Source: Proteromonas lacertae (Eukaryota). From it: DNA of 57,562 nt. Below, one piece after another: positions 24,019 through 52,003 of this stretch (position 1 is the stretch's first letter; each line of letters starts with the position of its first letter). The stretch is from contig NGBS01001191.1 of assembly GCA_002245135.1 (NCBI GenBank), positions 1 to 57,562 of the forward strand, given 5' to 3'. The position numbers and the translations under genes are program-made. The notes under the pieces were generated by a model. It saw only the letters and a list, made by a program, of their open reading frames with translations. It ran no database searches and was not told the origin of the DNA.

Positions 24019-24236
24019 AAGTTGATTGGCTTGTTTTTATTTTTTCAAGTTTTAGTTTAATAAAAATTGTGTTGTATTCACTATATGTCATGCAATAAGA
24101 AAATCATTAACATGCAAAAATTAATGAAGATTGAATTGTATCCGTTATAATGGTGATGAGTCAAACTGTTTGTCGTTAATAAATAGCTTTTCAAAGCTGT
24201 TTTATGAGCATTGTATTGTTACAAAATAAATATCAC

Positions 24237-25870: not shown

Positions 25871-25985
25871 CTCTGTACGTTTGTAGATTAATATTAAATA
25901 TTTCTTGTTATTTAAACGATAAAATCATTATGTATGATGATTTTTGTGTTGGCTTGAGATTTTAGCTTGAGAAATATTTATTTAA

Positions 25986-27041: not shown

Positions 27042-27074
<33 letters not shown>

Positions 27075-30000
27075 TTGATGTCAAAGAGACAGAAAGTTGA
27101 TAATAATAATGCTACAGTTTTGAGTAATCCAATTAGTAATTCAAGTATTAGAGAAAATCAAATCAATAATAATAATGATGAATATACTGACGTAAAACCT
27201 GTAATGCCTGTAATTGATGTAACAATAAATAATGATATTGAACCACCACCTGGTGCTATGATTAATATTCAACATCCAACATCAACAACAGATGCTACTA
27301 CAATTGAGGATGTAAATAAGGAAATGAATGAAATGAATTTTACAGTTGATAATCCTGATAATATAACAGGTGAACAAGTATTGTCAATATTACAAATGAT
27401 TGCAAATTTGTATATATATATAGATCATTTTTATTATTCTATATCTTATAGTAATCCTCGTTATAAAATTGATACAAGTGGTGCTCCTCATCAACAAATT
27501 CATAAATGTAGTTATACAATACCTGGATGTATGTAAATCATATATATAATTATTGATTTATAGATATTTTGGGTTTAACAAGTAATATTGAATGTAGTGG
27601 CAGTAGTTATCGAAAGCATGAAGCTGAAAGAAATAGTTTAATCAACTGTTACTACAAAATTAAAGTATATAAGAATATTTATCCTTTTTAATGTTGATAG
27701 AAAATCAATCCCAATTTCATTCAAAATTTTATAAATATCTTCAAAACACATAATATAAGAAAGATATTCTCTTTGGCAATACCACAACCAACAATTGTAT
27801 TAAATTCCATTAATGTTATGAATTAGATTAAAATCTTGTCTTTACAGAATTCTCATGTAGTTATAGAGAATGAAGAAAATGCTTTAAATACATCAAATAA
27901 TATACTTAGCAAATTATTCAAATCAAAATTTCCAAATGAAACAGAAGAAAAGAAAAAAGAAAGAAGAAATAACTCATCAAAATCACTTCAAATACATTTA
28001 TTGAACAATAATTCAAATAGTAAAATGGATGAAATAATACAGTCTGTTGCTTTCAAACCAAGTATAAAAATAGAATTTATAATAAAATATATAATATAAT
28101 AATGAAATAGATAACAATGATATATGGTAAAGCTGGAAGTGGAAAATCAACCAAAGTTCCTCAATGTATATTTGAAAAGTGTATATCTGAAGGAAATGGT
28201 GGAGAATGTAATATATGTGTTATTCAACCATCAAGATTAACAGCCATACTTACAGCAAAGCGAGTTGCATTTGAAAGAGGTGAAAGTATTGGTAAAACTA
28301 TCTTTTATCAAACAAAGATGGGTGATTTTAATCCTGATGATAATGGTTCAATTGTCTATATGACTCCTATTATATTTATAAAGAGATTATTATATAATAA
28401 TAATCTTGATGAATTTAGTCATGTTGTAATTGATAATGTTGATAATAGAGATTTATATTCTGATTTTATTTTGGTATATATATCATATAAATATAGTTAT
28501 GCATTTTTTTTAGTATTTAATGAAAATATTATTAAAAAAGAGAAATGATTTAAAACTGATTTTGTTTAGTTCTTTACCACAAATGACATTGTTTCAAGGA
28601 TTATTATAATTGTTATAATCCAGTCATTGAAATGGATATGAAACAGAATGATGTTAGAATAATTTACTTGGAGAACAATAATGATAAACAGCAGGATAAT
28701 AATGATGAAAACAACAATAATTACTATAATAGCAATTGTGATAAAACTCATGCATTGATTAATTATGACAGTATTACAAAGATAATAGAAACTAATTATG
28801 AAGAAGGTAAGATTAATAGTAAAGTATTGGTATTTCTACCAGATATAAACACTATAATGTCATGTAAAAGAGAATTGAATAATAGCAAATACAAAGATAA
28901 ATATGAAATTGAAATATTACATATATCATTTTTTAATATAACGATAATATTTTATATATTTTTCTTAATTATGATTGTAAGAGTATATTTCAGAAGAGAA
29001 TCAAGTAAATCTATTTAGTAGTGAATCAGGAGATAAGATGAAGATAATTCTATCAACTGATATAGCAGAATCACTTATTTCAATTAATAACGTTGATATA
29101 GTTATAGATTCATGTTTAACAAAACGAGAATTATTTGATATAGAGAATGGAGTATCAAAATCAACAATACAATATGCAGATAAATCAAAACTATACAAAA
29201 GAATATGTCAAATACATAATAATAATGATAATAATGGGGTTTGTTATAGATTAATATCAAATCAATGTTTTGAAGAATTGCCTGAATTTTCTCCATCAGA
29301 TATTACTTGTAGTTTAGTTGATGAAATATGTTTATATATTTTAGCATTTGATTTAGGAAATCCAATTTATGTAATGAATAAAATGATTGAAGTAACACCT
29401 GAAGAATTAGTGACATTTTCTTTAGATAGACTTATTTCATTAAGAGCAATACATAGAAATGATCAATTAGTTTATAATATACTTCCACTTGGTTATAGTT
29501 TAGTAGCATTACCTCTTACTCCATCAATAAGTAAGATGTTGTATTTATCATCCATATTTCACTGTATGTCTATTTCTTTGATTATTATTGGTATTATTAC
29601 CATTGGCGATGTTTTTATATATGATGATAAAATGATAAGAGATATAAGAGACAAGTATAAATATCTTTTATTATATTGAATAGAAAGTTTAGTTTTTGTA
29701 AAGAGAATTACAGCGATCTTATTTGTTCGGCTTATGCTTATAAAGTTTGGAAAGCTAATAAAAGTGTAAGTGAGAAAGATGAAATAGAGTTTTGTAGTAA
29801 TAATTATTTAAATATTGATGTATTAAGGAATATTGAATCATTTGTAAATGATATGGATAATTTATTTACTCAACTTGGTTATAAATCATCATCATTATCA
29901 TCATCAACAGATATAGATGTATATAATTGTTATAATTAATATATATATATATATATATATACTTCATTTAGAATGAAAGTGAATATTTATTGAGTCAATC

Positions 30001-30516
30001 ATTGTTGTGTGTTGCCTATTATTCAAATACTGTTCAACATATTACTGTATTGATTTATTCATATTTATTCGTTCTTTAGAAAGACATTTATCAATCTAAT
30101 GGTGAGAAGCATTTAATATTATCGAAATACTCTTGTTTAAAACATAAGGTATTTAATCAAAAACAAAACACTTATTATTTATATTCAGTATATTATTATA
30201 TAAATCATATGTTGAATAATAGATATGTGAAGAAAATGGATATAAAAATGTATGTCAATTATCGAATGTAAGACCAATATCAATGGCTATTTTTGGATGT
30301 GATTTTAAACAATACGATGAATTCTATAAATTGTGTCTATTAGATGATTGGATTCTTCTTAGATGTGATGAAATGACATTCAATTTAATCAACACAATCA
30401 AAAGTCAAATTGATACATTTTTGGATGAATATATAAACAATAAATTAGATGAAGAAAAAACAACACCTACAAATACTCTTACAGACATTTTCTTAACATT
30501 ATTGAAATATGTGTAA
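25986..30516 (+). CDS. dsRBD-containing DExH-fold (DHX9/DHX30-like) helicase with degenerate catalytic motifs
   Basis: Three dsRBD-like segments (GPPHNPMF, GPSHDLTH, GAPHQQIH); GKAGSGKST; QPSRLTAI..AKRVAFERGE; LVFLP; STDIAESLISI; HA2-like LGYSLVALP; about 11 introns. Confidence 0.85.
28923..28980 (+). other. U12-type (minor) intron, AT-AA, 58 nt
   Basis: Donor ATATCATTTT, branch TTTCTTAAT. Removal gives ILH|EYISEENQVNLF, the same spacing as DExH-family LHSxIxxEEQxxVF. Confidence 0.75.
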
Positions 30517-30588
30517 TTCTTTGTTTTTTATTGTTCAAATAAACCCAATAAACAAAATATAATAACTCAAACATTTATTAATTAAGAA

Positions 30589-31818
30589 TTATCCCATTTG
30601 TTTTCTTGGAATCTTGTTATCAAAGTAATCAACAACAAATTGTTTCATTTTATCATATTCCATAGCTCCATCATATTCATAATAAGCACCATCTTGTAAT
30701 ATATCAGTTACAAACAAAGCTGGTGTTTTTGTGATATGAGTCAATCCTCTAATTTGTTCAGTTACTTTATTCTCTACATTACCAATAATAAAGGCAGCAC
30801 TTTCTCTTCTTAATTCACTAGCAATCTTCTCAAATCCACTCTTAATCTTCTCATCATTACCAGTAATACAAAATACACATGGTTTTTCATTAATAGCCTT
30901 TGGATTGCTTGTTACATCGAATACTGGTGCTGGAATCCATGGATATCCGTCTGGTTCAGCAACCATAGCATCTCTACCATCAAATCTTATTCTATGTCCA
31001 TTTTCATCAAATAAGCAAACACAAGGAATGGTTTTAATACCTTGACTATTGTATAATGGATCACGTCTCTTATCTCCGAAGGGAATAGCGTATGTTCCCA
31101 TATGACTGAAGTAATCTAAGAAGGGTTGTTCTTCTCTATCTCGAGATACCCACACAATTGGGAAATCTATTCCTTTTTCTGTTAATTTATTATGTATTTC
31201 GACTAAGGTTGGTGTGAAACCTCTGCAAGATGGACACCAACTTGCTGAGAAGTATAATCCGAAGATTTTGCCTTTCAATATGTCAGATTTGATTATGGTC
31301 TTGTTGGCGTCTTTGTATAAGTCACCTTCTAATAAATCATAGATTGTCTTCTTGCTCCAAGGATATTCTGCAACATCTGGATCTTCAGCAATCATTGATC
31401 TAGCATTTTCATTGATTAATTCACCATCTGGTCCAAGCATGACTAATGTTGGAATGCCAGTGACATGGAACTTAGCATTAAGTGCTTTTCTGACATCTTC
31501 TTTTTCGTATGGAATTGCTAACCAAGGCATTTTTCCAAAGTATTCTTTAAAGCCTTCCATATCATTATCCCATGAACAGAATACAACTTCGAAATTTTTG
31601 CCAGCAGCTTGTAATTTTGCATAAGCAGCTTTTAATAATGGCGTAAATTGTCTGCATGGACCACACCAGATAGCTCTACATGAATAAAATATTTAATCAT
31701 ACGTGAAATAGATACCAACATATGTTTTAGGTAGCTTTTCAGCTGTCTTGTATGTTTTACCACTAGCATCAATTAATTCTGGTCCTAATAATGCTTCGTA
31801 TGGGTTAGGAGCTGACAT
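30589..31818 (-). CDS. NXN: Nucleoredoxin/tryparedoxin-like multi-thioredoxin protein
   Basis: GIYFTAIWCGPCRQFTP and GLYFSASWCPSCRGFTP; MPWLAIPY; one 27-nt intron. Confidence 0.9.
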
Positions 31819-31979
31819 ATCTTAATAAAATTCTAAAAGAAATTCTTAAATCTTCTGCAAGAAAACTGAAGAATTTTACATACAAATACATGTCATTTAC
31901 ATGGTTGGTTATTTTTATTTTTTGAATTTTCATCAGCTAATAACAAATACAACATGCAAAATGCAAATTAATTAACGTA

Positions 31980-33539
31980 TTAAAAGCTAAGAAGGTTCAT
32001 AGCATTATGAAGAACTTCACCTTGAATTGTTTTGTTACTGTCGTAATTCTCACCATCTATATCAAGATAACTTCCTTTCACTGATAATCTATATGCAAGG
32101 GCATGAATAACTTCTCCATTTCCATAGCTCAATACTTTCTCAAGTTTATCTTTAGTATTATCACCTAATTATACAAATTAAGAAATAACAATGTATACAT
32201 ATATATGCATAATAATATATTCAAAAAAAAGATATGATAATAAATAAATTCAACAACTCCAGACTTTTACAGTTTTTAACCATATAAATAGTAAAATAAC
32301 CTTCATTCATTTTAGTTTTTGGATCAACAGACATATCAACACTGAAATAAGAACTTGTCAAACTCAAAATACCAATAAAATTACCTTCTTTTCTAACCCA
32401 TCTACTATCATCATCAGGGATAGGTTGATTAATATCTGGTAAATACTGATACTTTGGTTTATCTTCATTATTAGATGGATTGAATGGAGGAATTACAGTC
32501 TTTTCATCATATGGTAAATAATATATAACACCTTCATAAGATCTTAATCTAAATAATGCATTATAAATACTCTAATAAAAATAAATAATAAATAATAAAA
32601 TATAAATATACAATAACTGGAAATCTAGTACTTCCCATCCATCTCATTCCTTCACTCTCAAAATCAGTATCAGCAATAAAACCCCATAACATTGCCAGTA
32701 TTGAATAAAATTGATTATTTTCTACATTCATTAATGTCAAATCTCTAGGTTTGACTTTTCCTCTAACACAATACAATGTAGCTGTATCTACATCGACAGA
32801 TTGATTATTATCATTTAAAATCGTACAAACTATTCCACAACCAGATCCACCTAATAAACAACCAATTGGAATTTTGATACATTCTTTCCAATCATCTTTT
32901 CTATTCATTATTCCATTTACAAATTCATGAATCATTCCATCTCCACTACATATTAATATTTCATCATATTTTTCAGGTTTGAATTCTTTTTCTGCATAAT
33001 TTCTAGCAAAATCTGCAGAGGTTGTGACTATTTCTTCGTATGTTAGAAATGCATTGTCTAATACTGGTTTTATTCTTACATTATATTTCTTTAATGTTTT
33101 TCCATCACCTCCTATTGGATTGATTAGTAATAATGCTTTTCTTTTCAATGAATTATAGTTCTTTATTGGATCATCATTTTCTATATCAAATACTACTTTA
33201 AAAAAAAGTTTGACAAAATCTAACAGGCACTTGTAATTTTCATCTTCCTTACCATCAAAAACAAAACTGTCTACATTCATTACTCTTTTTTTACCTTTAA
33301 ATACAAAACTGAATATGTCTATAGTGAAAATTGTTTCTCGATTTCCGTTTATTGTAATATTAAATAGATCAATTGTCTTGTAATGTAAGAACATCTTTTC
33401 AGAATTGCTAAAAATAGTTATACTATCAGGATTTAGAACTATTTTCTAAAATGTAAAAGTAAGCAGATAATACTGAATCATTATTATTATATTTCCCAAT
33501 TATCATACATTCATTTCTAGATTTAGGCACTTCTGCCAT
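31980..33539 (-). CDS. Sphingosine/ceramide kinase (DAGK catalytic domain family)
   Basis: INPIGG, SGDGMIHEFVNG, GGSG, WGFIADTDFESE.MRWMG..RF, IDGE. Confidence 0.9.
32169..32235 (-). other. U12-type intron, probably AT-AA, 67 nt (acceptor less certain)
   Basis: Donor ATATCTTTTT, branch ATTTCTTAAT. Ending at ...GTATAA keeps the frame (LFII|LGDNTK...IDGE); the AG 4 nt further is out of frame. Confidence 0.65.
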
Positions 33540-33544
33540 TGTCA

Positions 33545-33577
33545 GCTTCAAAAAATCAAAATTAGATTTTTTGAAGC
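33545..33577. repeat. Perfect 13-bp inverted repeat in the sphingosine kinase/TAF13 divergent promoter
   Basis: GCTTCAAAAAATC-AAAATTA-GATTTTTTGAAGC. Confidence 0.85.
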
Positions 33578-33638
33578 ACAAACTTATTCGAGCTTTTCAT
33601 TTCACAAGCCAAACTTATTTTATTTTATTATTTTATTC

Positions 33639-34040
33639 ATGAACAGAGATTGTTTATACGAATATGAACCTTATCATCCATATCTAGACTTGAGTAGATA
33701 TGATTTATCAGCAGATGGTATTAATATAAAGTATAAATCGTCTTAGTAAGAGAAATGATGTATGGATTTGGAGATAATGTTCAAACTATACCTCAAACTG
33801 TTAATTTAATGGAAGCAATAGCAAAGGATTATTTACAAACAATAGTATTGATGAATTGAATTATTTTGATAGATAAATAAAACATTTGATCAATTAGAAT
33901 GTCGTGGTGGAAAATTAGATGAAGAAGTATTCCTTTACACAATTAGAGATGACAGAGAGAAATTTGAAAGAGCAAAATATTTGTTGTTTGAAAGTAAAGA
34001 CATTAGATCAGCAAGAAATGAGGTACCAGATGATGACTAA
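33639..34040 (+). CDS. TAF13: TFIID subunit TAF13 (not in the ORF track; 2 introns)
   Basis: Spliced reading VREMMYGFGDNVQTIPQTVNLME...GKLDEEVFLYTIRDDREKFERAKYLL. Confidence 0.85.
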
Positions 34041-34068
34041 ATTAATTTATAAATTATAAAATATTTAT

Positions 34069-34575
34069 TTATATTCCTTGATAAAAGATTTCGTATTGTG
34101 GAACTCTGTTCTTTGGAATTGGTGATTCAACAATGTACTTTCCATACAAGCCTCCTTTATATATAACTTCGACTAGATCAATAAAATCTTGCTTTATTTG
34201 AAAGGCACCTATCCATTTTGTATGATCTTGAGTTCTAAAATCAACTTTTATATGTCTTGCATTGAAAAAGAAAACTGTTGCTGGTATTAGTGTTATATCG
34301 AAATATTGAATGTATAATGGTATATCATCTGCTTCTACAACACAGATTCTTGCCATTTTTGATAAAACATGTGAACATTTTGCTAACTATATTGGTTATT
34401 ATTAATCAACTATACAATGTCATCCTGTTCCATACACACTGGATCGTCTTCTTTACCAAATCTCAAAACTAATACCTATAATATAAAAATTTTCGAGATA
34501 TACTTTATCTTCTGTTGTTCTTATAGCTCTGTCAACTTCTTCTTTCGTTTTCAACCTCTCTAGACGTGAAACCAT
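34069..34575 (-). CDS. TXNL4B: Thioredoxin-like 4B / Dim2 (minor spliceosome tri-snRNP paralogue of Dim1)
   Basis: KEEVDRAI...KVLVLRFG..DPVC...DDIL, YIQYFDITLIPATVFFFN, DHTKWIGAF..KQDFIDLVEVIY, IVESPI...PQYEIFYQGI. These are Dim2-type rather than Dim1-type motifs. Confidence 0.9.
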
Positions 34576-34599
34576 GAAAAAAACAAAAAATGAATGAAA

Positions 34600-34612
34600 A
34601 TTTTCGCACCGA
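34600..34612 (+). promoter_or_regulatory. Candidate promoter motif ATTTTCGCACCGA in the TXNL4B/kinase divergent promoter
   Basis: Exact match to the reverse complement of 18054-18066. Confidence 0.4.
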
Positions 34613-34633
34613 GAATATCTGTTTTTCTGATAA

Positions 34634-35856
34634 ATGGGTAATTGCTTAAATGATGGTGATTATGATAGTGTAGAGAATCCACAATGCAAGTATATTTCAA
34701 CATATTTTATTAAAATGAGGCCTGTGTCTATTAAAATCAAAGAAGGAGTTATAGTGAGAGTGTATAAAAATATTATTATGATTATAATTAGTAAATCGAT
34801 GAATGATTTTTATGAATTCAAGAAAGAAATAGGAAAAGGAGCAACAGGATCAGTGTTTTTGTGTATAGAGAAGGGAGTTGGTATGAAAATTATAAAATTT
34901 TGTTACTATAAAATAGGTCACAAATATGCAATTAAAAAAATGCTAAAACCACAAAAGAAGAAAAAAGAATTTCAAGACACAATAAAAAATGAAGAGATTC
35001 TCTCATCCTCTGTATTATAATAAGTAATTATAAAACTTAGTTATTTCATCCAAATGTAATAAAATGTTATGGATGTTATAAAGATGATAATTATTATTAC
35101 ATCATACAGGAATATGCTCAAGGAGGTGATTTATGTGATTTTGTAAATAAAACAGATGGAATATCAGTATCAGAAACAAGACAGATTATAAGGACGTTAT
35201 TATTTACAATAGTTTATTGTCATTATAATGAAATCATTCATAGAGATGTAAAACCAGAAAATATATCATTTTTATATAAAATCTAAAAGATTTCTTTAAT
35301 TATTATTTTTTGTTACATACTATTAACAAGAAGAAATGATATTGATTCAATTAAATTAACAGATTTTGGATTAGCATCTCTAAAAGTAGGAAATGAAGTA
35401 TATATATATTATGAATTTGTTTTTTATCTATAATAGAATACAAGTGGTATATGCGGTACACCAGAATATATTGCACCTGAAATACTTCAAAATTCATCCT
35501 ATAATTACAAAGTTGATATTTGGTCAGTAGGAGTAATAACATACTTTTTGATATGTAATACAAATCCATTTATTGATTCTAAATTTAAAAATAAAATTGC
35601 ACCATTGTTAAGAAATATATGTAGAGGTGCTTATAATTTGAATAATCCCAAATTGAAAGATGTTCCTAAATCGTTGAAGAAATTTATCAAGTTTTTGCTT
35701 GTACTTGATCCTTCTAGAAGGCCAACAGCTGACCAAGCATTACATCACGAATTTATGCTAGAAGATTTTGAAAATCTATCTGGTGATGCTACTACTGATA
35801 TAGTTGAATATAATTGGATGATAATCAGAAGATATCAGACTAGACAGAGATGGAAG

Positions 35857-35897
<41 letters not shown>

Positions 35898-35971
35898 CAT
35901 AGTTGGCAATATCAATTCGTTTCTGTGTAAGTTTATTGAAGAAATTTCTTATACATATTGTTATTCATTAG
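34634..35971 (+). CDS. CAMK/CDPK-group Ser/Thr kinase with an MGNC acylation motif and no visible EF-hands
   Basis: IGKGATGSV, YAIK, HRDVKPEN|ILL, DFG, CGTPEYIAPE, DIWSVGVI; about 7 introns. Confidence 0.9.
35263..35316 (+). other. U12-type intron, AT-AC, 54 nt
   Basis: Donor ATATCATTTT, branch TTTCTTTAAT, acceptor TTAC. Removal exactly restores the kinase motif HRDVKPEN|ILL...DFG. Confidence 0.92.
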
Positions 35972-36132
35972 ATAAATTTAATAGTAAATAAATACTTTTT
36001 CTTCCTTCATTGGTATGTTTTTAAGTATTAAAAGAAAACAAATAGAGTTTCTCGCAAGTTTTAAACACATTTTTATTTTATGGTGTGCCAAAACATACTC
36101 CATACACCCAATATTTGAAAAAAGACAGTTAG

Positions 36133-36996
36133 ATGTCTTTTATCGACCGAACCTCAGTTGAGCTTATGAGCTCTCTAGATCCAAGCCCATTTAGTGATTT
36201 GGATCCTAGTTTGAGTATATATTATCACAAATAACTCGTAGATGATAATTTTCAAGTCGTTTATGAAAGAGAATGTCCATTTCAAATTGAAGCAGTATTT
36301 AACTATTCATTGCTATGCATTTTAGAGAAGAGTATCGAATCAAGGATCATTAGAGAATTTTTCTGTCAAAATATTAGTTCAAGTATATCATTTTATAAAT
36401 TTATAATATGTTCTAGATAAATGATAACACATTACAAGTTGTAAAAATTGAATTAATGAAAGAACAAGATTTGTTTTTTCATTATACTTATTCTTGTGCT
36501 TATACCGATTTTCAACTTCTTCAAAAGGATCAGAAACTAACAATAGGTTTTGAAGATTATCCAAATCTATTGATTAAAGTAATAAAAGACTGTATTGCCT
36601 CTCCAATGGAGTATTAATACACAATCTTATTTATTAATAGTCATTTGGCAATATTATCTCATGATGATTCACTTTTACATGCTAAATTTGTTAGAAATAT
36701 GGAATTTAAATATGTTGAACTACTATCTATTGATTTTCTTCCATCACCTTTAGATTATGTCAAAAGAATTGTTACATATAAATATAATACTGCAAAAGCA
36801 TCTTTATTAATATCACAGACAAAGCTTTATGTATATTGATTTATGCTTTTATTCATTTTAATAGGAATTAATGAATATAGTGAAAAATAAAAATCCATCG
36901 TTATTGCATTTCATGAAAGCATCACCTGCTGCTGGTATTCCTCAGACAATGAACAATACAGCTTCTTCATTTAGAATAGCTTCTAAACAGCTTTAA
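36133..36996 (+). CDS. SAS6L: SAS6-like protein (SAS-6 head domain with a short coiled coil)
   Basis: KIEL..EQDLFFHY, QKL...F.DYP, NMEFKYVELLS, TYKYN, IVKNKNPSLL; 5 introns. Confidence 0.85.
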
Positions 36997-37092
36997 ATTT
37001 ATATTCTTTGTGTTATATTGAATTAAAATCATTTTTCTTTTCAAAAACACAAAATAATTGATAAAAAAACGAATAGTTTAAATTAATTACAT

Positions 37093-40000
37093 TTATTCTT
37101 TTGAATTTTGTACAACTTCATTAGATTTACTAACAATAAGAGTTTTCTCATGAACTACGACAGTATTGCTAGTTCCAACTTTCAAAGTACCTCCACTTAA
37201 ATAACTATCTTTACTTTCAGATTTATTAGATCTATTAGATGTGTCAGATTTATAATCAAGTGATGCAGGAGTAAATATTCCTTTTATTTGTGGCAAAGTG
37301 GTAGAATCTGATGGTGTTGCATATAGATATTGACTATTCTTACCCAATCGAGACATTTTCCCTTCTTCTTCTTTCCCAGAAGATCCTTTTGATTTAGACA
37401 TATCCAATTTTTCACCTTTTATCATATACTTACTTGAAACTAAAGATGCAGTGGAAACAACACTATGTCTGGCTGGTGGACCACCATTCTGTAATGTTGT
37501 ATGTAAACTATGCTTTATATATGTAGAATTACTTTCACTAGCAACCAAATAAGCACTACCATTTGATTGATCTGGTTTTAAAATATTCTCATATAATGAA
37601 GTATTTATTTGCCTTGGTTGTAGTTGTTCTACTTGTGAATTTCTTTGGATTGATGATTTTATTAATTTAGTATTTATATTAACATGAACCATATCATTAT
37701 CACCTTTAGTTGCTGTTGTTGGAATTCTATGCTTATTTGCATCCTTTATTACTTTCTCATTTGTTACTGTTATTGGAGATTTACAAACTGAGTATTCGTC
37801 AGATTCACCAGAATTAGAATCTTTTGCATTTCTAGTATTTAAATAGTACAAGTAAATCTTCTGTCCAATAATAATGACTGATATTAATGTAGCAATTAAT
37901 GATATTCCCATTCCCAAAATAATCACTTTCATGTTATAATCATTTAGATAAATCAATGTTGGTGATATTACTAATACTCCAAACATTAAAAAATATATAT
38001 TAAGGAGTTATAATAGGCAATGAAAAGTCAAAAAAAAAGATATATATTAATATAGAAGAGTAAGTGATACTCATTGATTCATTAAACTCATAATCAGCAT
38101 TTCTTAGTCTGAAACTCGTATAAAGTAACATTAAATAGAATATCACTAAAAACAATGCTGCAACTACTACACAAACTATATTGTAAGAACAATCTTTAGT
38201 AATTACATTCCTTGATATATTTGTTTGAGATTCATCAATAGTTGTACTTATTCTAATAAATAAAAATAACAATTATAATATTAATACTCTGCTGGAAAAG
38301 AAAATGTCCATATTGTAAGATAAACAGTATAAACAATCACAATCACGATTATATTGTAAATCAAATCAAATGGTGAAACTGTTACTCTTTTTATTCCTGT
38401 ATTATTCAACACTTTATGAACTTTCCATATTTTAATAAACAGAGTTGAAAGAATAAAACATACAGATAATAGTAAATGAGATAGTTGAGCACTACAGGAT
38501 AATGGAGTATCTGCAAATGAAACAATGGATAATCCTGCTAAAGAAAGAGAAATTGAACCAAGTATAACCATTATACAAAAAGAAGCAAAAGCTCTTCTGA
38601 TTATTTTTGATCTTCTTTTCCATATGATAAATATTGCAAAACATAGATTAATTATTATATTAATTGCAATAAATAAATATAAAAAGATAGTAACTGTATT
38701 GGAAACTTCATATAACACAGTAGGAGGTCCAAAATAAGGTAATTCTATATTTTCACTTCTATAAACAGTTGAATAAGTGTCAATTACTGAAATCGTTAAA
38801 TGATTATTTATTACTCCAAAATAAAAATCAATTTTCACTTCATTTGATGTATCAAGTATTGCATTTAATCCATAATTCACAAAACTAGTCTTATACAACA
38901 AATACCTAAATAACTCATAATCAACATCTTTTATATCACCATATTTTTCTTTATACAGTTTTATTCCATGAGAAATTAAGTTCATTGACAAAGATGACGA
39001 ATAAACAATTCCATTGGTTTTCATTTGACCAAATGAATTTGAATTCATAGTTTGTTGGTAATGTCTCATAAAGGAATTAATTGGCATGTATGAAAAAGTT
39101 ACATATTGTTTTACTAATATGTCTTGGTAATCTATCATTGTATCATAACTGGGAAACATAAATAACATTTGGCTAATTGATTTTTTTAGACCTACATTAT
39201 CATATGTAGTTATAATATTTCTAATACATTCATTATTCACCAACATTACGATTACTATATATATATATATATATACATATAACTATTGAATATTTATACT
39301 TAAAATTTTCTCATTTGTTATTAGATATCTACGAAAAATCTGTGATAGAATCTCTTCAGTTTTTGAACAAATATCAATTTCTGCAGCATCAACAACTACA
39401 TTTGTATTATTTAATTCACTTTTCAATAAACTACATGTAGAAAATATTAAGATTAACTTCAAAAAATTATAGAAAAAAAAAGATATATTGGACAGCTTGG
39501 CATAGAAATCAGCAGTATTTTATTTATGAATAATTTGGCAAGCTGATCACTTATTATATCACTTACAACACTATCAATCAATGATAATGAAATGATATTA
39601 GATTGTAACATTGTTTCTTTTGTAGCAGCTGCTAATGAAAAGAGAATTGTTTTATTGAAATCATATCTTACTGCTTCTAAATGTGATGGCATTAAAAATG
39701 TAATAAATGCGAAATATTTCTCCTGATTCTCTACTAAAATCAATTTCAATTCATCAATTGTTTTGTATTTCTTACTATATAACACATAATTGTTGGTATA
39801 AATATCCTCCTTGTTAATCTCATTAATTTGATACAAAAATGCTAAAAATGCATTAATACCAATCTCATAATCATCTTCTGAAAAGACAAACAAGAATTTT
39901 ATCTGATCAGAATTAAATGAAACACTTTCGACATTAAACATACACTTTTGATCACTTAAATATGGATCAAAATTATAAGCAAATATTGGACTGTCTTGAT

Positions 40001-43000
40001 AATATACAATTTCAAACTTTTCTATTTGATAATTATAGTGTTCTATGAAATATAATTGTTCTAATTTTCTTCCTGGAGTTAATGTGCATGGACCATATGG
40101 ACTTAAAACACTTATTTTTTGATTTAATACAGCGAAAAAGTTACTATCCAAATCATAATTCCCAGATCTATATAATATATCTTTTAATATCAAAAATGAT
40201 GTTAAACCGATATAACTTGGGTATTCTACTCTATACTTATCAGAATAGATAGTGAAAAAGAAATTATTCACATCTACTGCTAAATTTACATAATTAGGAT
40301 TCAAATTAGGATTGTTTTTATCTCCTAAACTCTGAAAATATGAAGAGAAGAAATAAAAACCATCCATTAAATACGTCATATTATCATCAATCTGTAAAGA
40401 TGATAAATCAGTGATAATTATTCTATCATTTGTATTAAAACCTTCTATAAATGACTTTAATACAACACTACCAATATAAGGAACTGGTCCAAATAGCAGC
40501 AAGATAGTATCATCACTCTCTTTCATATATTTATGAATTGGAGAATATGTTGATTTATCATTAATATCAAAGGAAAAAGTAACAATAACTGAAAAGGGAT
40601 AACTATTTAACTGATTATATAAGGGAACAATAAAATCACTATATGATATAGAATAGATAATTGTCAAACTCTTATTATGACTTAATACGAAATTACTTAC
40701 ATGATAACCTATTTCATAAGGAAAGTAATTCATAAAAATGATATTATTTTCACATCACTTCACCACTATAAGGTAATAACTGTAACATTATTTTGTTGGT
40801 TAAATATAAAAGAGGTAAAAAATATTGTGAAACTATCGAATAATCGATTACACTAAAGAAAATAGTTGCTTTTAAATCAGAGAAGCTAGAAATAATATCT
40901 TTATAATAATATTTCTCTAAATGTATAAATTTGTTCATCAATCCTGTATTATTATTGACACTAATCACTAATCTTTCAATAGCTATATAATATGCTTTTT
41001 CATAAAACGTAATATCATGGAGAGGACTTTCAAATATAAATCCAATTTGAAACACATCCATAGTTTTTATATATTCGGCATCTCCCTGTGAATCAGAATT
41101 ATAATAATCAACATAACTGTATTGATTTGTATTTGATTCATATTTATAACACATTTCATATGCTCTATGTAATTTTGAACTAATTACAGATTTTCCATTA
41201 TTTGTATAATAAATAGTTCTTGAAAGAGTGTTAGTTATTGACATTGATATAATCCATAAGCAGTTTCAAATGAATAACTATAAATAGACAAAGATTCTAT
41301 TTCTTCTTTACTGTAATATGAATATAAATAATTTATAAATTCAACATATATCAATCCAACAAATGATTCTTCATTGAATGGTAAGGAATATATTTCTACT
41401 GGACAATAGTTATTCATTAACATCTCAGTTGTATTACTATCAAATATATAGTCTCTTCTATTCACTTCTTCTCTTTTAATATCTCTATTATATGTAGCAA
41501 CAATGTAACTGTGTATATTGGATTTACATTTATCAATATTTTTCAGCGCATAATTCATTGGATCACAGTAATAGACATCTATTGAAGACTTTATTTCATT
41601 ATTCATATTGATACCACATATACTATCAGCAAAATACTTTAAAACAGGTTTATGCAACATACAAATAATATTCTGTGCTTTAATTAATACAGTATACTCA
41701 TTCATAAATGTATCAATTTCAGTCTTATAATCTTCATTATTGATCAAATAGTATGCTATTGGAGAATCTTTAAACTTCTCTTTAATATTGTTTATTAACA
41801 CATCCCCATTCTTTGAATAAACAATTACTATCTTTTCAATATACTTTTTATTGGTTATATGCTCAATAATTGGATATACTATTTGATTAGCACTAGTTGA
41901 AGAAAATATATTCTTTGAAATAACACATTCTAGTATTGGATGGATTGAAAAGAATAATACATTAGTGTCTTTAATATACTCTTCAACTATTTCATATTCA
42001 TGATAAAATAAACCACCAATTATAATTCTCAAATTCTCAAATTTCACTAATTCACTATATGCCTTTTTATAATCATTTTCTGTCACACAATTATATGTTG
42101 TTATTACTATATTCAAATTATTTGTTAAATAGTAATAATTAATTGCATTTACAATAGTTAAAACCACTTGTCTTGTATAATCCATTTCTGTATCATCATT
42201 TATGTTGAAAGTTAAACCAATTCTATTTATACCAATCTTCTTTGTAAGCGCTGTATTATTATCTCTATCTATTAGACAAATTGAACCTGTTTGACTATCA
42301 TCAAACCATGGATAAGGAATAGAAAATGATTCTAAAGTTGAATTGTATATTTTTATTAATTCAACTTCTCTATTTTCATTTGCAAATAGCAAATAAAGTG
42401 GATTTCTAGATGTTAAATATCTACTTATAAAATCTATTTTACCCAAATTTGTCAATATATCAAAATCACCAATTGTTTCAATCATTCTTAAGAGTAGTTC
42501 CATTGCATTATATCCCAAATAATTATATCTATTTGGGATTTGACTATATATTTTTTTAAATCCATCTTCAAATCCATTCATCATAACCTCATTCATTCCA
42601 GTAACATAGTCTTCAATTGAATATACATTCACAACATAATAACTTGAATTATAATAATAATCGTATAGACTTGTTGTAGCAAATAAAAGAGAATCTTCAC
42701 TTTTAGATGATAAGAAATTGAATACTGATGGATTTAATAATGTTATTGTATTAAAAATAAATACTCTAAAAGATATTGACTTATCTAATACATCCTTTAA
42801 ATATAAAACAGAAGGATTATCAACAACTAAACTATTTATACCTAATATCCTTGAATAGCTTCTAATCATATTTGCAAATAAGTTATACTTGCTTTCTGTT
42901 AATAATATGAAATAATTAATTCTTCTAATATAGAAATGATTAATCACAGTTGAAACTTGGTTTATTTTACTATTCACTGTTGAAATTATATGTGAACTAC

Positions 43001-46000
43001 ATACTCCTGGATCTCCATAGAATGATAACAACACTTTGTTATACTTAATCAATATAGGAGACATTAGTTTTATACAATCAATTCCACTACATCCAATAAA
43101 TGCAACTACATTTTCATCTTTAGCCAATTCTGTAATTTCGTTAATATTAAATCTTACATCTGTATCAATAATATGTGTGTTTAAAATCATTTTATTATAT
43201 TTTGTAGATAAAACATAGTGTAATCCTGTATATATCTCAAAAATATTATCTGAACCATCATTTATATAAACTATTTTCTTGATTGTCAATTGTTCTATAT
43301 CATTGTCATGATAAACATCACATGCTATTGGTTCTAAATCTCTATCAAAGAATAGATAATATGGATCAGGCTTTATTTTATCACTTTCATATTCCAATTT
43401 TACTCCAATTCTATTATTAGAATCATTATAAAATTTACCAATTCTAATATTTCTGGTAAGATAATTTGATTTATCAAGATCAATAATACCTTCAGGAGAA
43501 TAGTAACTAAAATTTGTATTTGATCTATCACTAATACTATCGTTCTTTTCGTGATTGATTTTATAATAAAACTCTGTTAAAAAACCTCCTATATAAAACA
43601 ATGAACTAACATTAACCTCATTAATATAACTAAATATTGTTGAATTAGTCCAGATAGTATTGTAAGAAAGATTATAACTTGGCAAATAATTACACATTAT
43701 ATAATTGTTCATTAAGTATTCAACAGGATATTTCTGTGCTTCAAAATAATCCATATTTAAATCGAAAACAACATACTTGAAAGAAGGAAATAAAACTGAA
43801 TATTGATATAATTCATTATAGAATTTATATGTAGATTCTGATATAGTATATAATACAAAAGCATATTCAGTATCATTATTACTAAGCTCATCAAAAAATA
43901 GTCTCAATTTCGCAGCATCACTAAATATGTATGATGAAAATACATTCATAAAGTGAGTTTTCATTATATACTCATATGCCTCATCTAAATACCATTCAAA
44001 TCTATCAGATATTAACACTGTATGCCTAATAGCAGTTGTATCTAAATATTGAGCAATGGCTATTAATTTTTGATGTAAAACTGTTCCTAAAATTATAAAA
44101 TTCTTTGAATAACATTCTGGATAATTAACATCATAAAAATAATAAAACGAAGTGTTTGTATTATTTATTTCCCTAGAAATTAACGTTTCTAGCTACAGTA
44201 GATGGATAACCACCAAATACTGCTACATATTTCTTTTCAACAAGTGTATGAAGTAAATATCTAAATGTATCAACATCATCTCCACAATTATAATAATCCA
44301 AGACATATTTTACATCATCACTCATTAGATGAACAAAATAATTAGAAGCCAAAGTTAATGCATATATTACACTTGAATATGTTTCTTTATAAAAGCCAGA
44401 ATATGGATGAATTACACCAATATGAATAGTATTAGGAAATTCAACTGCTTTGCCATTAACACAAATGTAATACTTATGTTGATATAAAGCAGAATATGGA
44501 GTAGGTATATATATATCAGCACCTTCATTCACTTGCACTATTTTTGTATGATTTTTATTATATGTTCTTAGATAAGTAACTTGAGCTGTGTATAAATCTT
44601 TAGTTATATGAATTCGACCAATTACTGTATTGTATGAATTTATTAATGTTGTATTTTTGATTTTAGAAAATGAATTCGTATTACCATTTCTATAATTCTC
44701 ATACAATATTTTCATAAAAGTATATAACACTGCACTATCATCATCAAATAATCCATCAATACCTATATGACTTTTAATAATATCTAAATAATGAAGGTTT
44801 TCTTCAATATTAAGTCTTGGATTGTAATTAACCAGAAAATATAAATGGTAGTATGATATTCTATCTCTTAACATCAAATAAGTGAAATCTGGAGAATTAT
44901 TAATCAATAAGTAATATGGTAAATCCCAATTATCATCATAGATATATTTATAGAAATATAAAATCATCTTTTCCAAAATATCTATTTCATCAACTAGTAA
45001 GACTATTAACCCACCATTATTAATCTCACTTCTAATTGTTTCAAACAACCTGTAATATGATTGTTGAGTTAAATCATCAGTTATTACATTAGACACAAAA
45101 TGTTTAACATCATAAAATTCTAAATATGGTTTTAACATATTTATATAATCTTGAGAATAAACATGTTGATCTACAATAATTGAAATAGGCAAAGACCATT
45201 TCTGTAGTAAATAGAATAAAGACATTATTTCTTGACTGATGATTGTTCCTCCAATTATACTATAATAATTATAATATTATAATATTATATACATATTTTT
45301 CAAACACATTTCTCCATTTGATTGATATGGAGTAATTAATGGAATATCTTTCTCAACAAGATAATCATCAAAAAACAATAGACAATCTTTATAATAACAT
45401 CCTATGATTGATGTAAAATTGAACTTATCTAACAACTCATCTAGTTGGGTTTTATATGTAGTTGGTGGTATATTAGATTTAAATGTAAATGGAATAATTC
45501 TCTATAATAATAAATAAATCAACATATATACGATATAAACATGACTCAAAGATATTAAATCATAAGATGCAGCTGAAGCTCCATACAATGTAACTACATC
45601 ATGCAAATTGTCTTTATCATAAAGATATAACGAATTATAAGCAGTTTGTTTATATAAAACACCATAGCTGCATTTATATACAAATGTATTTAAATCACTT
45701 GGATTAAAAATATCTTCTGGATATACTACTCTCTTATTTTCATCATAAGTTGTATATAAAAATGGATAAACAGTTGAAGAAGATTGATGTTTAATAGTGA
45801 ATGTTTCATTCACAATTTTAATAACAAATATATAAGATAACATGGATGGATTTTCATCAATTGTAACAACACCTTTTGGAGATATAATACTATCATAAGC
45901 ACCACTTTTAATATATTCTAATGTAATATAATAATTAAGTAAATAGGTAGGGAAATAGAAATGACCATCTTTAGAAAATGGGAATGTAGTGTTGTAAGTT

Positions 46001-49000
46001 TCATAATTATTACCAAAAGAATCAATATCATTGTGAATTTTGATATTCTTTGTGGAATTCAGAGTATTAGAGTATGTTGTAACAATATAAGTGTTGTTAT
46101 ATTTTTCCAAATTGTCCAAAACATTTGCTTCATCATTTCTTATCATTATTAATGTAATACTATTATCTAAATCAGTCACAATTATGTCATTCTTCTTTGT
46201 TATTAAAGTAGAAATAAGAAACGAATTTAAACACTCTGTATTTACTTTATTTAACTGTAATTGAACATTTGTATCATCGATTATATACTGCTTTCATTAT
46301 GTATCTTATAAATAAAACATCTCCTTTTATAAACTTAATCAAACCTTTTGTATATATATCATTTTCTCCTATTATACAGAGATTAATATCATTCTCACTG
46401 TAAATTTTTTCATTCTCAGTCAACAGACTGGAAATACCAGTTAATGTCTGTTCTAATGAATCTCCCATCTATAAATAATATAATATATAAAATAATACAT
46501 TTACATAATTTGTTTCACATAATGATTCAGAATACCACCAAGTGTTTATTACACATGCATTTACACTCTTTATATCAGCTTCTAATTCATATAATAGTTC
46601 TTCACTAATTGAATAATAATACATTATATTATATACCTAAATGTAGCAACTAAATATGATTCTTTAGATTTATCTTCTTTTATTCTTTTAAATGCATTTC
46701 TGTAACACACAACTGAACCAAAAGTACAACTCATAGGAAAAATTAATGGAATAATATTTTTTCTGTTCGTTGAATATGTATTTTGAAATAAATAAAACAG
46801 GGAATATATCAAATCCAAATCTCTCGATTCTTCAATTGGAAATACCATATAAATATAAATAATAGGTTTTGGTGTAATAGTATTATCTACTGCATTACAT
46901 ACATTAAACGTGTGATTGGATAAATCATAATCATAGGATGTTGATATTGTAGGAAATGGACAATTTGTATATACGCTAATAGTTTTATCTGGATCTAATT
47001 TGAATTGCTTTGGAGTTCCCATAGCTTGGAAATTATATCCAATCGAAGTTTGTGTTATGCTTGATGGAAATTCATAGAAACATTTTTTATAATTTGTTGA
47101 ACTGTAACTACTACAATTACTATAACTGTCTCTGATATTATCAACTAAATGCTTTCCAATCCTATAATCGATTGTATAATTCATATTAAATTGTGTGTAA
47201 TAATAATTATATGATAATATTCTTGTATCTACTGGATCATTACTGTATATGGACATGAAGAAAAAATTATCAAAATTGATATTAAATGCAAATATTTTGT
47301 ATGGAGTAGTATGACTAAATGACACAAAACCTTTTAAGCTAGGATTGCCATTGTATAATTTAAAAAATTCTAATGCACATTTACCTTGAACAGCAAATAC
47401 AACCAAATGTTCTATAAAAAATAAAATAAATAATAAATAATTCATTTATACTATTAATTTCAGATTTTAAAATATTAACTATTTCCTGAACATTTGAAGA
47501 ATCTTTTTTTAATTGATAATACTTATTTACCTCATACCTATGAAATGATTCTTCTTTTGAGACTAAATCATAGAAAAAATCTCCATATCTGCCTTCTGAA
47601 TATACAACAAACAATGTATTCAAATCAGGTGGATTATATATTGCATAATTTGCAGATACAAAGAAATGAAATTGACTGTACATTCCTGAATTATAAAAAA
47701 CAACATTTGAACTACATATATTACCTTCATTTTCTTCAACAGAGAATAACAAAATATCTAAAGATTCCAACACTATATATATTACATATATTAAAATAAA
47801 AAATACATGGGACAATCTGAATCAACAAATCACTATCAATAGCTGCAAATATTGTATCAACTTTATAAACTCGTGCATACTCTTTTATCTATTTACAATA
47901 TATATTATTTAACTATACTAGTTTTTCTAATCCTTCAATTGTATCTGGAACTACATCTTCAATCAATCTCAATGAATACATATCCTGTTCATCATATAAA
48001 CGCTTTAATTCAGAAGTAATAATATCAAGAGAAGATTGAATTATATTATCTCCCATATAATAATTATTTATTACTCCATAATATTTAAACTCATTCATTC
48101 TCATTGTACAAAGATTCTGATGTGATGCATTTGATATTATTGGTGTAAATGCTCTTTCATCTAATGGTGCGTACATTCCAAACTCGTCTAAATATACCAA
48201 TTCATTAGCATCATTAACTGTATATAAGTAATGATTACCGTAATAGAAACTATTATTACTCAAATACAAAACAATTTCTGGTGTAATAATATCAGTTCTA
48301 TATACCTTATCAATAATATTTGGATCATCAAAAACTATCTTATCAAGCGTATCAAGCCATTGTTTTACCATATAAAATGCAAAATAATCAACAGATGATA
48401 CATCATTTGCATTACCATAAACATTCTCATATAATCCACTAAATTCAGTGTTTTTAATGCCGTGTATATAATCAATAAATAAATATTGACCAACTGCATT
48501 GGGGTTTGTTTCATATACAGTTTTAACAGAATCAATCAGTGAATATAAACGAATACCACTTACTGACTGTAGTTTCATTTCATTCAATAGATCATCTGTG
48601 TCTTTATCTATTAACAATGAAACAATAATACCTCCATTAGGTAAATATTGCTTTATCTTTGATACTGTATCTGTTGATGATGAAAATTCTATCAATCCAT
48701 GGTAATTTAACCCTAAATGAATGTTATATGCATTTGATGGAAGTAATAGTTTTTCTAAACTTGTTAGTTACTTCGTCTATATTACCCAATATTATTATAT
48801 CACCATACAACTTCATTAACAATGAAACAACTTCATGTATATATAAACCTGAAAAGACTGCGTTGTATATACAATCTGGAAAATGGGTAAATTCTAGGAA
48901 CTATTAGAAATGACCTAGCTATTATGTTTTGTTCATATATAATTTTTAAACACTTACTATTTACATATGCAAAAGCCATCGATACAGACTGATTAAACAC

Positions 49001-49237
49001 ATAATAAGCACTACTCTGACATTCTTCTAAACTAGTAATGTTTTTGTTTATAAAATTATAGTTTCGTTCATTTGGTAAATTTGTATGATTTTGAAAGGCT
49101 AACTGAAAGGATTTATAAATTGAGTTTGATGATGACGAAAACGAGGATGAAATATCTAATATAACTCCAACATTAATTGTTGGAACTATTTCTCTAGAAA
49201 AAGCAATAAAAGATAAAAACAAAAAAATAACCACCAT
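37093..49237 (-). CDS. Giant class C (GABA-B-like) 7TM receptor with about 9 tandem type I periplasmic-binding (Venus flytrap, UrtA/AmiC-like) modules
   Basis: Signal peptide; repeated IxIGVI starts and E/GxCxxNI motifs; 7TM region with RRSKIIRRA...F, IKIWKVHKV, FNES..I; long Ser-rich tail; about 11 introns and several apparent 1-nt indels. Confidence 0.8.
37986..38043 (-). other. U12-type intron, AT-AA, 58 nt, in TM6 of the receptor
   Basis: Donor ATATCTTTTT, branch CTCCTTAAT. Removal gives FNESMSITYSSILI(L)FGVLVISP. Confidence 0.8.
39437..39486 (-). other. U12-type intron, AT-AC, 50 nt, in the receptor ectodomain
   Basis: Donor ATATCTTTTT, branch ATCTTAAT, acceptor CTAC. Removal gives in-frame MPSCP(I)CSLLKSELN. 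Confidence 0.82.
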
Positions 49238-49418
49238 TAATACATCAATTATACATTTAATACAACTGTATTTGTTCGTTTTTAAAATTTATTATGAAAA
49301 AACAACAATTCGTAAGCTAAAAAGTATATTCTTAATTAATAATCTTATAGGACATTAAATATAAATTAATTACTATATGAAAAGTCTTAAATAAATAGTA
49401 TGAAAAAATGTGTATAAT

Positions 49419-50589
49419 TTACAGTAATAATGTAGGAGAACTGGGGTTTATAGCAATAATTGGATGAATTTTAGCTGAGCTATAGGAAATAATAGGAGAA
49501 TTATCAGTTTTTGCTCTACTTCTTTGCATGAACCTATTCCTTCTAGCTGCACTACGTAAATCATATCTCATTACACTTTTAGGAGATTCTCTTTCGGCTA
49601 TTTTACAATAACCATACTTACATCGAATTTCGTAAATTATAGAAGCTTTAATTCTCTTAAAATCATCACCAGGTTTTCTATACTCTGTGTATAGTAATGG
49701 TGGTTTAGGCACTACAATCCTGCTAATAATTTCAGTACATTTTTCAACAGGTTTGGGAGAGAGATAAAAGCCATCCAAATATGAGTTATAATAATGCATT
49801 CTAGCACATATTCTGAGGAAATTCTTTTTTCCAACGAATGCACTAATTAAAGATCTTTTTAATTTATCAAAAACAGAGATTAAACTGTAACTACTGTGAA
49901 TAAGCGATACAACTTCTCTAAGTGAAACAAATTCGGATGGATCTTTTCCAGCTATGTATGTCTCTAAGGATGTCTCTAAATGAGAATTTTCAAGTAAAGT
50001 GTGAAAAAATTGGGAAGCTTGTTGATAAGTCAATGATATATTACTCTGATAACCACATACTGACATCATTACTATTGTAATAAACATAAAATAATATTTT
50101 GATTATACTCTTTACCCTCAATTCAAGCGAAAAGAATACAAAAATACCTATAAATTGCAACAAATGATCCATTGATATTAAATGATCTATTGGTGAATAT
50201 AAACATTACACAGAATACCTGTTATTTTGAAATATTCTTCAAAAGCAGGACTATACTGACAATCAATCGCACTAAACAAGTTTTCAGCTTTAATGCATGT
50301 TCTGGATGGACATTTATACCATAGGGCTAAATAATTATGTTGAATTATGGATATTTCATAATTATTCACTATATAACCGTAATGATGTATATACGACAAA
50401 GAGCTTCAGCTATTTTGACGGAAAAGAAGTTTATTGAAAAAAGAGGTTCTCTTCTAAAAGACATATTTTGTACTAAGGTGAAGTGTAGGTATTTATGCTT
50501 TCTATGAGAATTTATTGATAAATATATGAAATAATAAGATATACCATTTCATTAATTAGCTCATCTTCTTCATTTAGATTATTTTGCAT
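49419..50589 (-). CDS. Hypothetical protein (several short introns; start uncertain)
   Basis: ORFs 50187-50399 and 49419-50087 join through GT-AG introns and a small middle exon; no family recognised. Confidence 0.45.
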
Positions 50590-50837
50590 TTCAAAATAGA
50601 TTTTTCGGTTATTTATTCAAAAATTAAAATGGGAGGAATAATGTTATAAAACTGTGTTATTGACCATAAAATATTATTTATCTAATGAAGATATGTATAA
50701 ATAAGTATTATTATGTGAAAAGACTATTAAATGATTCATTTCTAAAATATTCTTTTGAGTGTTTTATTATAATATACAACAAATCACCTGATCAAATACA
50801 TAATTATTTCGTCTAAAATGTTCTATAGTCTATTTTT

Positions 50838-50873
50838 TGACATAAAATTGACAAAAATGACATAAAATGACAT
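50838..50873 (+). repeat. Short tandem repeat (TGACATAAAA-like, about 4 copies) overlapping the WD40-FN3 start codon
   Basis: TGACATAAAAT TGACAAAAA TGACATAAAA TGACAT. Confidence 0.65.
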
Positions 50874-51969
50874 CGTTACCAACAACACCCAAAATAGATA
50901 CTAAGAAGCAAGAAAAAGCTCGAGATGAGGTTATTGAAAAAGGTAAAAAAGTTTTGGAGGCTAGAGAGGAAAGAATTCGAATGAAAGAAACTAAATTGAT
51001 GGAAATAGAAGATAAATCTGCAACAGAACTTGAGACTAGAACAAGAAATACATTAAGGTTACTTAGAATAGAAAATGATAAAAAGGTATCACAATTTCTG
51101 TTATTGTTTTAGGAAGAAAGAGCATTTAAAGAAATGCGTATGCAGGATATATTAGCTGAACAAATGGAAGATGGATTGCATTTTAGGTATGGAAAGCTTA
51201 CTTCTCTAAAACATCATAAATCTTCTGCTACTTTAGTAAGACTATGCTATGGTCATGTAGGTCGTATATCAGGAGTAGATATGAATTATAATGGAACATT
51301 AATTGTATCATGTTCAGAAGATAAAACCATCAGAATTTGGTCTTCATCTTCAGGAAATGAATTATTAACTTTACCTCAAGATGACATAGAAGCATCAGGA
51401 CATACAAAATCAATATCTGATGTAAAATTTATACCTAACATTAATCAAAATTATTCATCCTTCATAATAAAGAAAACATCCTTACATGAGATAGAAAATC
51501 ATTATTCAATGAGAAATGTGATTAGAAAATTAACTAGAAAAAACACTAGTCGTTCTAGTTTAGGTGGAATTCCTGAGGAACAACAGAATCAACCAGAAGA
51601 ATTTCCCAAAACATCATCAGGGATAGAAGAAGAGAAACCTAGCATATTACAGAACTCATTATTAGAGGAATTAGATGAAGATTATAAAGAACCTGAGCCA
51701 CCAGTAGAAGGAAGAATTGTTAGTTGTTCCAATGATATATCATTTTTGTCATATATATTTTTTGTATTTCTTTAATTATAAGTTTAACATACTGTAAGAG
51801 TATGGGATTTAAAACGTAGAAGAGAAACAATGACATTGACAGATCATAAAGATATTGTATATTCAGTAGCAGCATCACCAGATGGTTATTTTATAGCCAG
51901 TAGTTCTGAAGATAAAACGGTAAAATTGTGGGATGCAATAACAGGCAAATTAATAAGAACATATGTGTA

Positions 51970-52003
<34 letters not shown>

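Follow-up and report, generated by a model that had tools for sequence, protein, structure and literature searches.

Minor introns in described systems

The introns removed by the minor (U12-type) spliceosome carry a donor consensus RTATCCTT and a branch consensus TTCCTTRAC (PMC3584512, PMC11874965). We analyzed six segments in a 57,562-nucleotide (nt) stretch of the Proteromonas lacertae assembly GCA_002245135.1 (contig NGBS01001191.1; the whole stretch is called the window in the following). Judged from sequence comparison, the six segments are quite probably AT-AN introns of the minor spliceosome with a drifted target code. The shifted donor and the majority of AT-AA termini are the firmest new points, and an expansion of such introns in the lineage is a lead only.

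At the minor donor the positions −1 to +4 are read by proteins and the positions +5 to +10 pair with the 5' end of U11, and the AT-AN introns are a subtype that depends on CENATAC (PMC11874965). The distance between branch point and 3' end has its optimum at 11–13 nt (PMC3584512), and AT-AA is the commonest non-canonical minor terminus in animals and plants (PMC10639083).

Two systems are of particular interest for comparison. In Blastocystis ST1, 346 of 35,412 introns (0.98%) are minor introns (PMC5608401), and the phase-0-rich minor introns of Blastocystis have been suggested by Larue and Roy (2023, PMC10639083) to be recently gained. In Physarum polycephalum, 20,899 minor introns stand against 154,299 major introns (11.9%; bioRxiv 10.1101/2020.10.12.336362), and a high density and transformed minor-intron signals are already known from this organism. 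Outside Amoebozoa a fraction of 0.554% is among the highest reported (PMC10639083). For Proteromonas we found no literature on minor or U12 introns in a search that left most subscription journals outside.

Six candidate AT-AN introns

The window is gene-dense with a GC content of 26.8%, and the six candidates are spread over five unrelated genes, each on the coding strand. Intron 1 (28923..28980, + strand, 58 nt, AT-AA, phase 0, branch-like motif at 28961-28969) interrupts a DEAH/RHA-type helicase gene, and intron 2 (32169..32235, − strand, 67 nt, AT-AA, phase 0, motif at 32177-32185) a sphingosine-kinase gene. Intron 3 (35263..35316, + strand, 54 nt, AT-AC, phase 0, motif at 35292-35300) lies in a CaMK/CDPK-like kinase gene. 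Introns 4 (37986..38043, − strand, 58 nt, AT-AA, phase 1, motif at 37999-38007) and 5 (39437..39486, − strand, 50 nt, AT-AC, phase 2, motif at 39446-39454) belong to the same class C (GABA-B/GPR156-like) receptor gene, intron 4 being located in its seven-transmembrane part. Intron 6 (51737..51787, + strand, 51 nt, AT-AA, phase 0, motif at 51768-51776) is found in a gene with WD40 and fibronectin-III domains. An initial annotation of the stretch had already proposed these six segments, and its positions, strands and lengths are all correct.

The donor reads ATATC[A/T]TTTTT in all six, with A at +6 in three introns and T in the other three; the start ATATC[A/T]TTTT described before is thus confirmed, the T-run being one T longer. 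A branch-like motif [CT][CT]TTAAT is likewise present in every candidate, followed after its second A by 12, 9, 17, 14, 10 and 12 nt in introns 1 to 6. This agrees with the claimed spacing of 9–17 nt and brackets the optimum of 11–13 nt. Compared to the donor consensus RTATCCTT, seven of eight positions are matched throughout and the C at +6 is missing throughout, and compared to the branch consensus TTCCTTRAC intron 5 has four mismatches and each of the other introns has two. The termini are of the U12 type, namely AT-AA in introns 1, 2, 4 and 6 and AT-AC in introns 3 and 5. Cytosine loss accounts for most of the deviation from the consensus, and affects position +6 of the donor, the branch motif and the final base of the intron.

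Searching both strands for donor plus branch motif gave 6 occurrences compared to 0.26 ± 0.48 expected from 200 order-3 Markov simulations, none of which reached 6; the significance of this enrichment is overstated, because the composite motif was derived from the same six candidates. The donor motif alone is mildly enriched (10 vs 5.1 expected). Further donor-like matches were dropped from consideration: the one at 36385 lies inside a GT-AG intron, the one at 40744(−) in coding sequence beside a single-base frame break, and those at 198 and 46356 are antisense. A GT-starting U12-like intron was not found in the window, where two GTATC donors occur without the branch motif.

Comparison with known minor introns

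With the canonical U12 introns of animals and plants the six candidates share the ATATC start, the branch motif near the 3' end, the occurrence of AT-AC and AT-AA termini, and the lack of G at −1 (6/6 here). They differ from them in both consensus signals and in their ends; canonical U12 introns are more commonly GT-AG, have non-canonical ends in about 4% of the cases and reach a density of at most about 0.5%.

Blastocystis ST1 has in common with the window that its minor introns start with AT and are longer than the major introns, which are about 30 nt long and mostly end with TAG; phase 0 is frequent (49% in ST1), local clusters occur, and the branch is of a CTT.A[CT] type. The differences concern the details of the signals. 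In ST1 the C at +6 is present in 336 of the 339 ATATC introns listed (ATATCT three times, ATATCA never) compared to none of the six here, whereas +7 and +8 are variable among 193 of these rows and T at +7 to +11 is fixed here. Among 60 ST1 rows counted by hand the ends were AC in 32, AG in 23, AA in 3 and AT in 2, as opposed to AA in 4/6 of our candidates. The ST1 minor introns also tend to be shorter (about 37–45 nt, the branch being separated from the 3' end by a few nt) than the 50–67 nt with a 9–17 nt spacing observed here. By analogy, ST1 may be regarded as the mirror-image solution of the same pairing problem, with a rigid C5C6 and a loose T-run.

Physarum resembles the window in its high density (local in our case), its transformed signals, a donor variant with T at +6, and AT-AA among the non-canonical ends (27%). 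Its minor introns are mostly GT-AG, whereas all six candidates start with AT, and its TTTGA branch is matched by a changed U12 small nuclear RNA (snRNA), whereas the branch here is near canonical. Physarum minor introns furthermore have transposon-like ends; here none of the ends is inverted, and A occurs at +6.

This last difference bears on the idea that a mobile intron (introner) active until recently gave rise to the six segments as its copies, a scenario put forward for Physarum. Exonic AT precedes five of the six candidates compared to 10 of 78 GT-AG introns (p = 5e-4), and both AT-AC introns have AT following as well. Phase 0 in 4/6 is more than the 22% typical of minor introns (p = 0.02), and two candidates sit in a lineage-specific receptor gene, which suggests gain. 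The interiors of the six introns are nevertheless unrelated when compared with each other (local alignment scores of 4–9 vs 19–36 for self-comparison), and no inverted copy of the donor is present at the 3' ends. Because mutual similarity and inverted ends are both lacking, no recent mobile family is visible, and we regard this origin as very improbable, although an introner origin further back in time is conceivable. The phases, the AT before five of the six donors and the position of two candidates in the lineage-specific receptor gene lead us to lean towards gain over ancient retention.

Contrast with the GT-AG introns of the window

To obtain a reference set, a self-trained gene finder was applied to the region from 11.1 to 55 kilobases (kb; 11130..55000), and the five models spanning the candidates were removed. 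This ab initio prediction resulted in 91 GT/GC-AG introns, in line with the approximately 90 counted by hand earlier; 78 of them are confident GTA...TAG introns of 26–57 nt (cut-off ≤60 nt).

The candidates differ from this class in several features. A C at +5 is found in 6/6 candidates and in 2/78 GT-AG introns (p = 7e-8), T at +7 to +11 in 6/6 and 0/78, and the branch motif in 6/6 and 0/78 (p = 2e-9). The greater length noted previously also holds (Mann-Whitney p = 9e-5), as only 3 of the 78 reach 50 nt. In the complete set of 91 predicted introns the branch motif occurs twice, once 50 nt from the end and once in a model that bridges a frame break. The former case is a 148-nt GT-AG intron at 15719-15866 (+) in an ankyrin-repeat gene, which has a near-canonical U12-like branch without a U12 donor; its motif is possibly a relic or a nested splice site.

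A different explanation would be that the segments are real introns, spliced by the major (U2-type) machinery as AT-AN variants of its own donor, or former minor introns taken over after the minor machinery was lost. The major donor of the window lends itself to this explanation, as it is a uniform GTAT (T at +4 in 77/78 confident introns), which itself may imply an altered U1 or U6 pairing. The U12 hallmark C at +6 is absent in all six candidates. U2-type AT-AC introns exist, and are said to have been described by Wu and Krainer in 1997. No minor snRNA was found, in a search that covered 57 kb only: a scan of the window with Rfam gave no match at gathering score, and up to an E-value of 0.1 the histone stem-loop was the sole hit, so U11, U12, U4atac and U6atac were not found, which says nothing about the rest of the genome. 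However, the candidates do not resemble a U2-type AT-AC class, as the C at +5, T7–T11, the branch motif and the length are all unlike the major class. Together with the non-TAG ends these features are combined in all six segments and almost never in the GT-AG class, and a take-over by the major machinery is not expected to preserve U12-like features. We therefore consider splicing by the U2-type machinery unlikely, and favor the minor spliceosome.

Need for removal and choice of junctions

Reading through the segments leads to a stop or a frameshift at all six sites, and the two candidates with a length divisible by three (introns 3 and 6) hold in-frame stops. Removal of the six segments restores KPEN|ILL (intron 3) and SND|HTVRVW (intron 6), as foreseen in the initial annotation, as well as ILH|EYISEENQ, and leads to open frames at the other three sites. 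To take alternative boundaries into account, all frame-keeping stop-free gaps were enumerated at introns 1, 2, 3 and 6, and the resulting peptides were scored against homologues.

The proposed junction of intron 1 ranks first of 3787 gap options with 74.7 bits, compared to 57.9 for the best GT/GC-AG option (hidden Markov model, HMM, of 7 homologues); its AA end reaches 75.1 vs 69.2 for the same donor combined with an in-frame AG at +3. Intron 6 also ranks first (1/843), with 23.4 bits vs 10.7 for the best GT-AG option against an HMM built from five further WD repeats of the window. For intron 3, whose upstream exon ends at KPEN in comparison with kinases from the PDB, the junction is tied first of 2380 with 29.0 bits vs 13.5, based on a single kinase reference. 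The tied options are shifted boundaries whose peptides score the same, and no standard pair other than AT-AC occurs among them. At intron 2, where read-through hits a stop, the AA is the first stop-free in-frame A-N end past the branch motif. In total, GT/GC-AG options lose 10–17 bits at introns 1, 2, 3 and 6, and nowhere that junction scoring was possible does a nearby GT-AG alternative come close. The AA end is favored by homology at introns 1 and 6, and would follow from the motifs and the frame at introns 2 and 4.

The two introns of the receptor gene had to be judged by other means. The match of the exon upstream of intron 4 to Pfam 7tm_3 extends as far as position 206 of the 251 in the profile. 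With the nearest GT-AG option 36 coding nt would be lost, corresponding to 12 residues of a membrane helix. A PDB search with the upstream exon gave no match, and neither the exon downstream of intron 4 nor the exons flanking intron 5 had one in Pfam. At intron 5 read-through hits a stop and the nearest alternatives use GC donors; a homologue search for this junction found none, and neither were open reading frames (ORFs) of relatives found that run into intron 5 and from which the base at +6 could be read. In a motif-blind run of the gene finder that allowed gaps with any ends, four of the six non-GT gaps beyond 9 kb at the most permissive setting lay over introns 1, 2, 5 and 6, with imprecise borders.

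For the sphingosine kinase, two levels of relatives were found among unnamed Logan proteins, with 86% and 55% identity. These relatives keep the position of a GT-AG intron of the gene, as their ORFs stop soon after the same exon end. According to the Logan proteins P0151, P0160 and P0301-P0308, public sequencing runs contain close (86%) as well as more distant (55%) relatives, and 9 of 10 ORFs of the window were absent from the protein collection searched.

The scored junctions also bear on the possibility that the segments are not introns with the proposed ends, but assembly errors, broken genes, or GT-AG introns with other boundaries. Single-base frame breaks are numerous elsewhere in the window, three of them in the receptor gene with introns 4 and 5, and frame-restoring GT/GC-AG options exist near five of the six sites, intron 3 having distant ones only. 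Those alternatives, however, delete or corrupt conserved residues and mostly lack a GTAT donor, and errors would not give inserts of 50–67 nt with a common donor and branch motif. An artificial loss of C is not suggested either, since the window shows no strong depletion of CC (observed/expected 0.90) and the three ATATCA donors cannot be explained by the loss of a C. We regard such an artefact as a very slight chance compared to genuine AT-AN introns.

Potential recognition mechanism

If the segments are minor introns, the drift of their code could be the consequence of a loss of cytosines in an AT-rich genome. The positions +1 to +4 (ATAT) would still be recognized by the U11 proteins, which is also the case in humans. 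The 5' end of U11, which pairs with +5 to +10, might be held by the C at +5 plus the fixed U-run at +7 to +11 and not by +6, which is probably unpaired because A occurs there in three introns and T in three, and no single base pairs with both. In the branch motif most differences from TTCCTTAAC are C-to-T changes, and an unchanged U12 snRNA could accommodate these as G-U pairs. The 3' end might be chosen by its distance from the branch point; if so, AA would work as well as AC.

The 5' end of U11 is A-rich, and the canonical U11 has a G opposite +6. Several observations have to be weighed against the proposed minor-spliceosome origin. An A at +6 is unable to pair with this G, the donor ATAT differs from the major GTAT only at +1, and the consensus is thin, because it rests on six introns. 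The branch of intron 5 has four mismatches to TTCCTTAAC, and that of intron 3 is 17 nt away from the end. Homology leaves the 3' end unfixed at introns 2, 4 and 5, and in-frame AG ends are available for introns 1, 4 and 5. The junction of intron 2 scores 55.9 bits vs 45.9 for the best GT-AG option, yet it ranks only 233rd of 2331, because higher scores are obtained with longer deletions. At intron 4 in-frame AG ends exist at +9 and +15, which makes the AA end an inferred one, and at intron 5 there is one at +6. At stricter penalties the motif-blind gene finder recovered three, and then none, of the six. Given the many apparent single-base frameshifts in the window, a dropped base could also yield AA from AT-AG or AT-AC at introns 1 and 6. 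Such errors might underlie one or two of the AA ends; for all four, or for the ATATCA donors, this is not plausible.

Density and a potential expansion

The six candidates lie among 38 predicted GT-AG introns at 28.9–51.8 kb, and with about 84–97 introns in total the local density amounts to 6–7% (95% interval for 6/97: 2.3–13%). The initial annotation had taken such a density as pointing to a lineage-wide expansion with a shifted consensus. The shifted-consensus U12-like class is borne out by the motif contrast with the 78 GT-AG introns and with Blastocystis, and the expansion is not established from one 23-kb stretch.

The density could also be that of an ordinary cluster of local extent, with a genome-wide minor fraction of about 1–2%, as in Blastocystis ST1, which is compatible with the U12-type nature of the six. 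The window was picked for its cluster, and none of the 47 predicted introns at 11–29 kb is of the candidate type. To estimate the extent of clustering in ST1 we took the row order of its intron list as a proxy for genome order (19,081 rows, with 193 of 339 ATATC rows covered). At a rate of 1.0%, 117 of 18,889 sliding windows of 97 introns (0.6%) contain at least 6 minor introns, the maximum being 7, so a genome with about 1% gives such a window occasionally. On the other hand 0.6% per window is little even with ST1-like clustering, the candidates are distributed over five unrelated genes, and the binomial probability of exactly 6 of 97 is just 0.0004 at 1% and 0.01 at 2%, compared to 0.17 at 6%. 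We give the ordinary cluster a little less than an even chance.

An elevated density throughout the genome is somewhat more probable than not. By judgement, a genome-wide minor fraction of at least 2% is somewhat favored, at least 3% falls just short of an even chance, and at least 5% is improbable. As a tentative and rather doubtful extension, a flagellated protist of the Blastocystis/Proteromonas group might have undergone a genome-wide expansion to several percent, second only to Physarum, with all minor introns starting with AT and most ending with AA, the C at +6 abandoned for the U-run, and U11 and U6atac re-tuned.

Few signals in eukaryotic genes are as strongly conserved as the minor 5' splice site. 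From a lineage without the C at +6 and with a preference for AT-AA one could learn which of their contacts U11 and U6atac can do without, and, if the recoding is true, this lineage would be an example from nature of a minor spliceosome with a recoded 5' splice site. Such introns would escape standard annotation and classifiers trained on RTATCCTT. Should the density hold genome-wide, it would be a second large gain of minor introns beside Physarum, and would test the suggestion of a recent gain in Blastocystis.

Other features of the window

The class C (GABA-B/GPR156-like) receptor gene with introns 4 and 5 is very large and extends, as one gene or as a cluster, from 37093 to about 48900 (−); it has several periplasmic-binding-like domains, and for one of its exons no relative was found. 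Apparent single-base frame breaks were observed at about 40750, 41247 and 44170 in this gene and within a giant coiled-coil gene at 1-3300, which suggests an unpolished long-read assembly or decaying genes.

With respect to the position of the organism, the MCM4 encoded in the window has homologues of up to about 66% identity among 120 listed, none of which is a named relative that would be informative, and a close relative was not found among 80 metagenome loci. The ESM Atlas gave an assignment at family level only. In a quickly computed tree with 60 rows, which combined the window with 38 of the 120 proteins and 21 of the 80 loci, no strongly supported clade includes the window; it falls outside the named plants, fungi, animals, dictyostelids and foraminifera. 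The N-terminal domain of SAS-6 is encoded at 36417-36830 (+), which makes centrioles or flagella probable for the organism and Blastocystis an improbable source. The intron architecture nevertheless resembles that of Blastocystis, and a GC content of 27.0% is listed for its flagellated relative Proteromonas, close to the 26.8% of the window, so that this group is a candidate.

An intronless histone H3 gene is followed at 13736-13781 (−) by a stem-loop of the histone 3' untranslated region (E = 1.6e-5, 32.5 bits vs a gathering score of 34). A block of 2.5 kb is present twice, at 21468-24012 and 55013-57554, with 99.4% identity, and contains genes which, from their translations, we take to encode a proteasome beta subunit-like and a ZPR1-like protein. 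Both copies appear to have a common frame break, near 22750 and 56295, and the block represents either a recent duplication or an assembly artefact.

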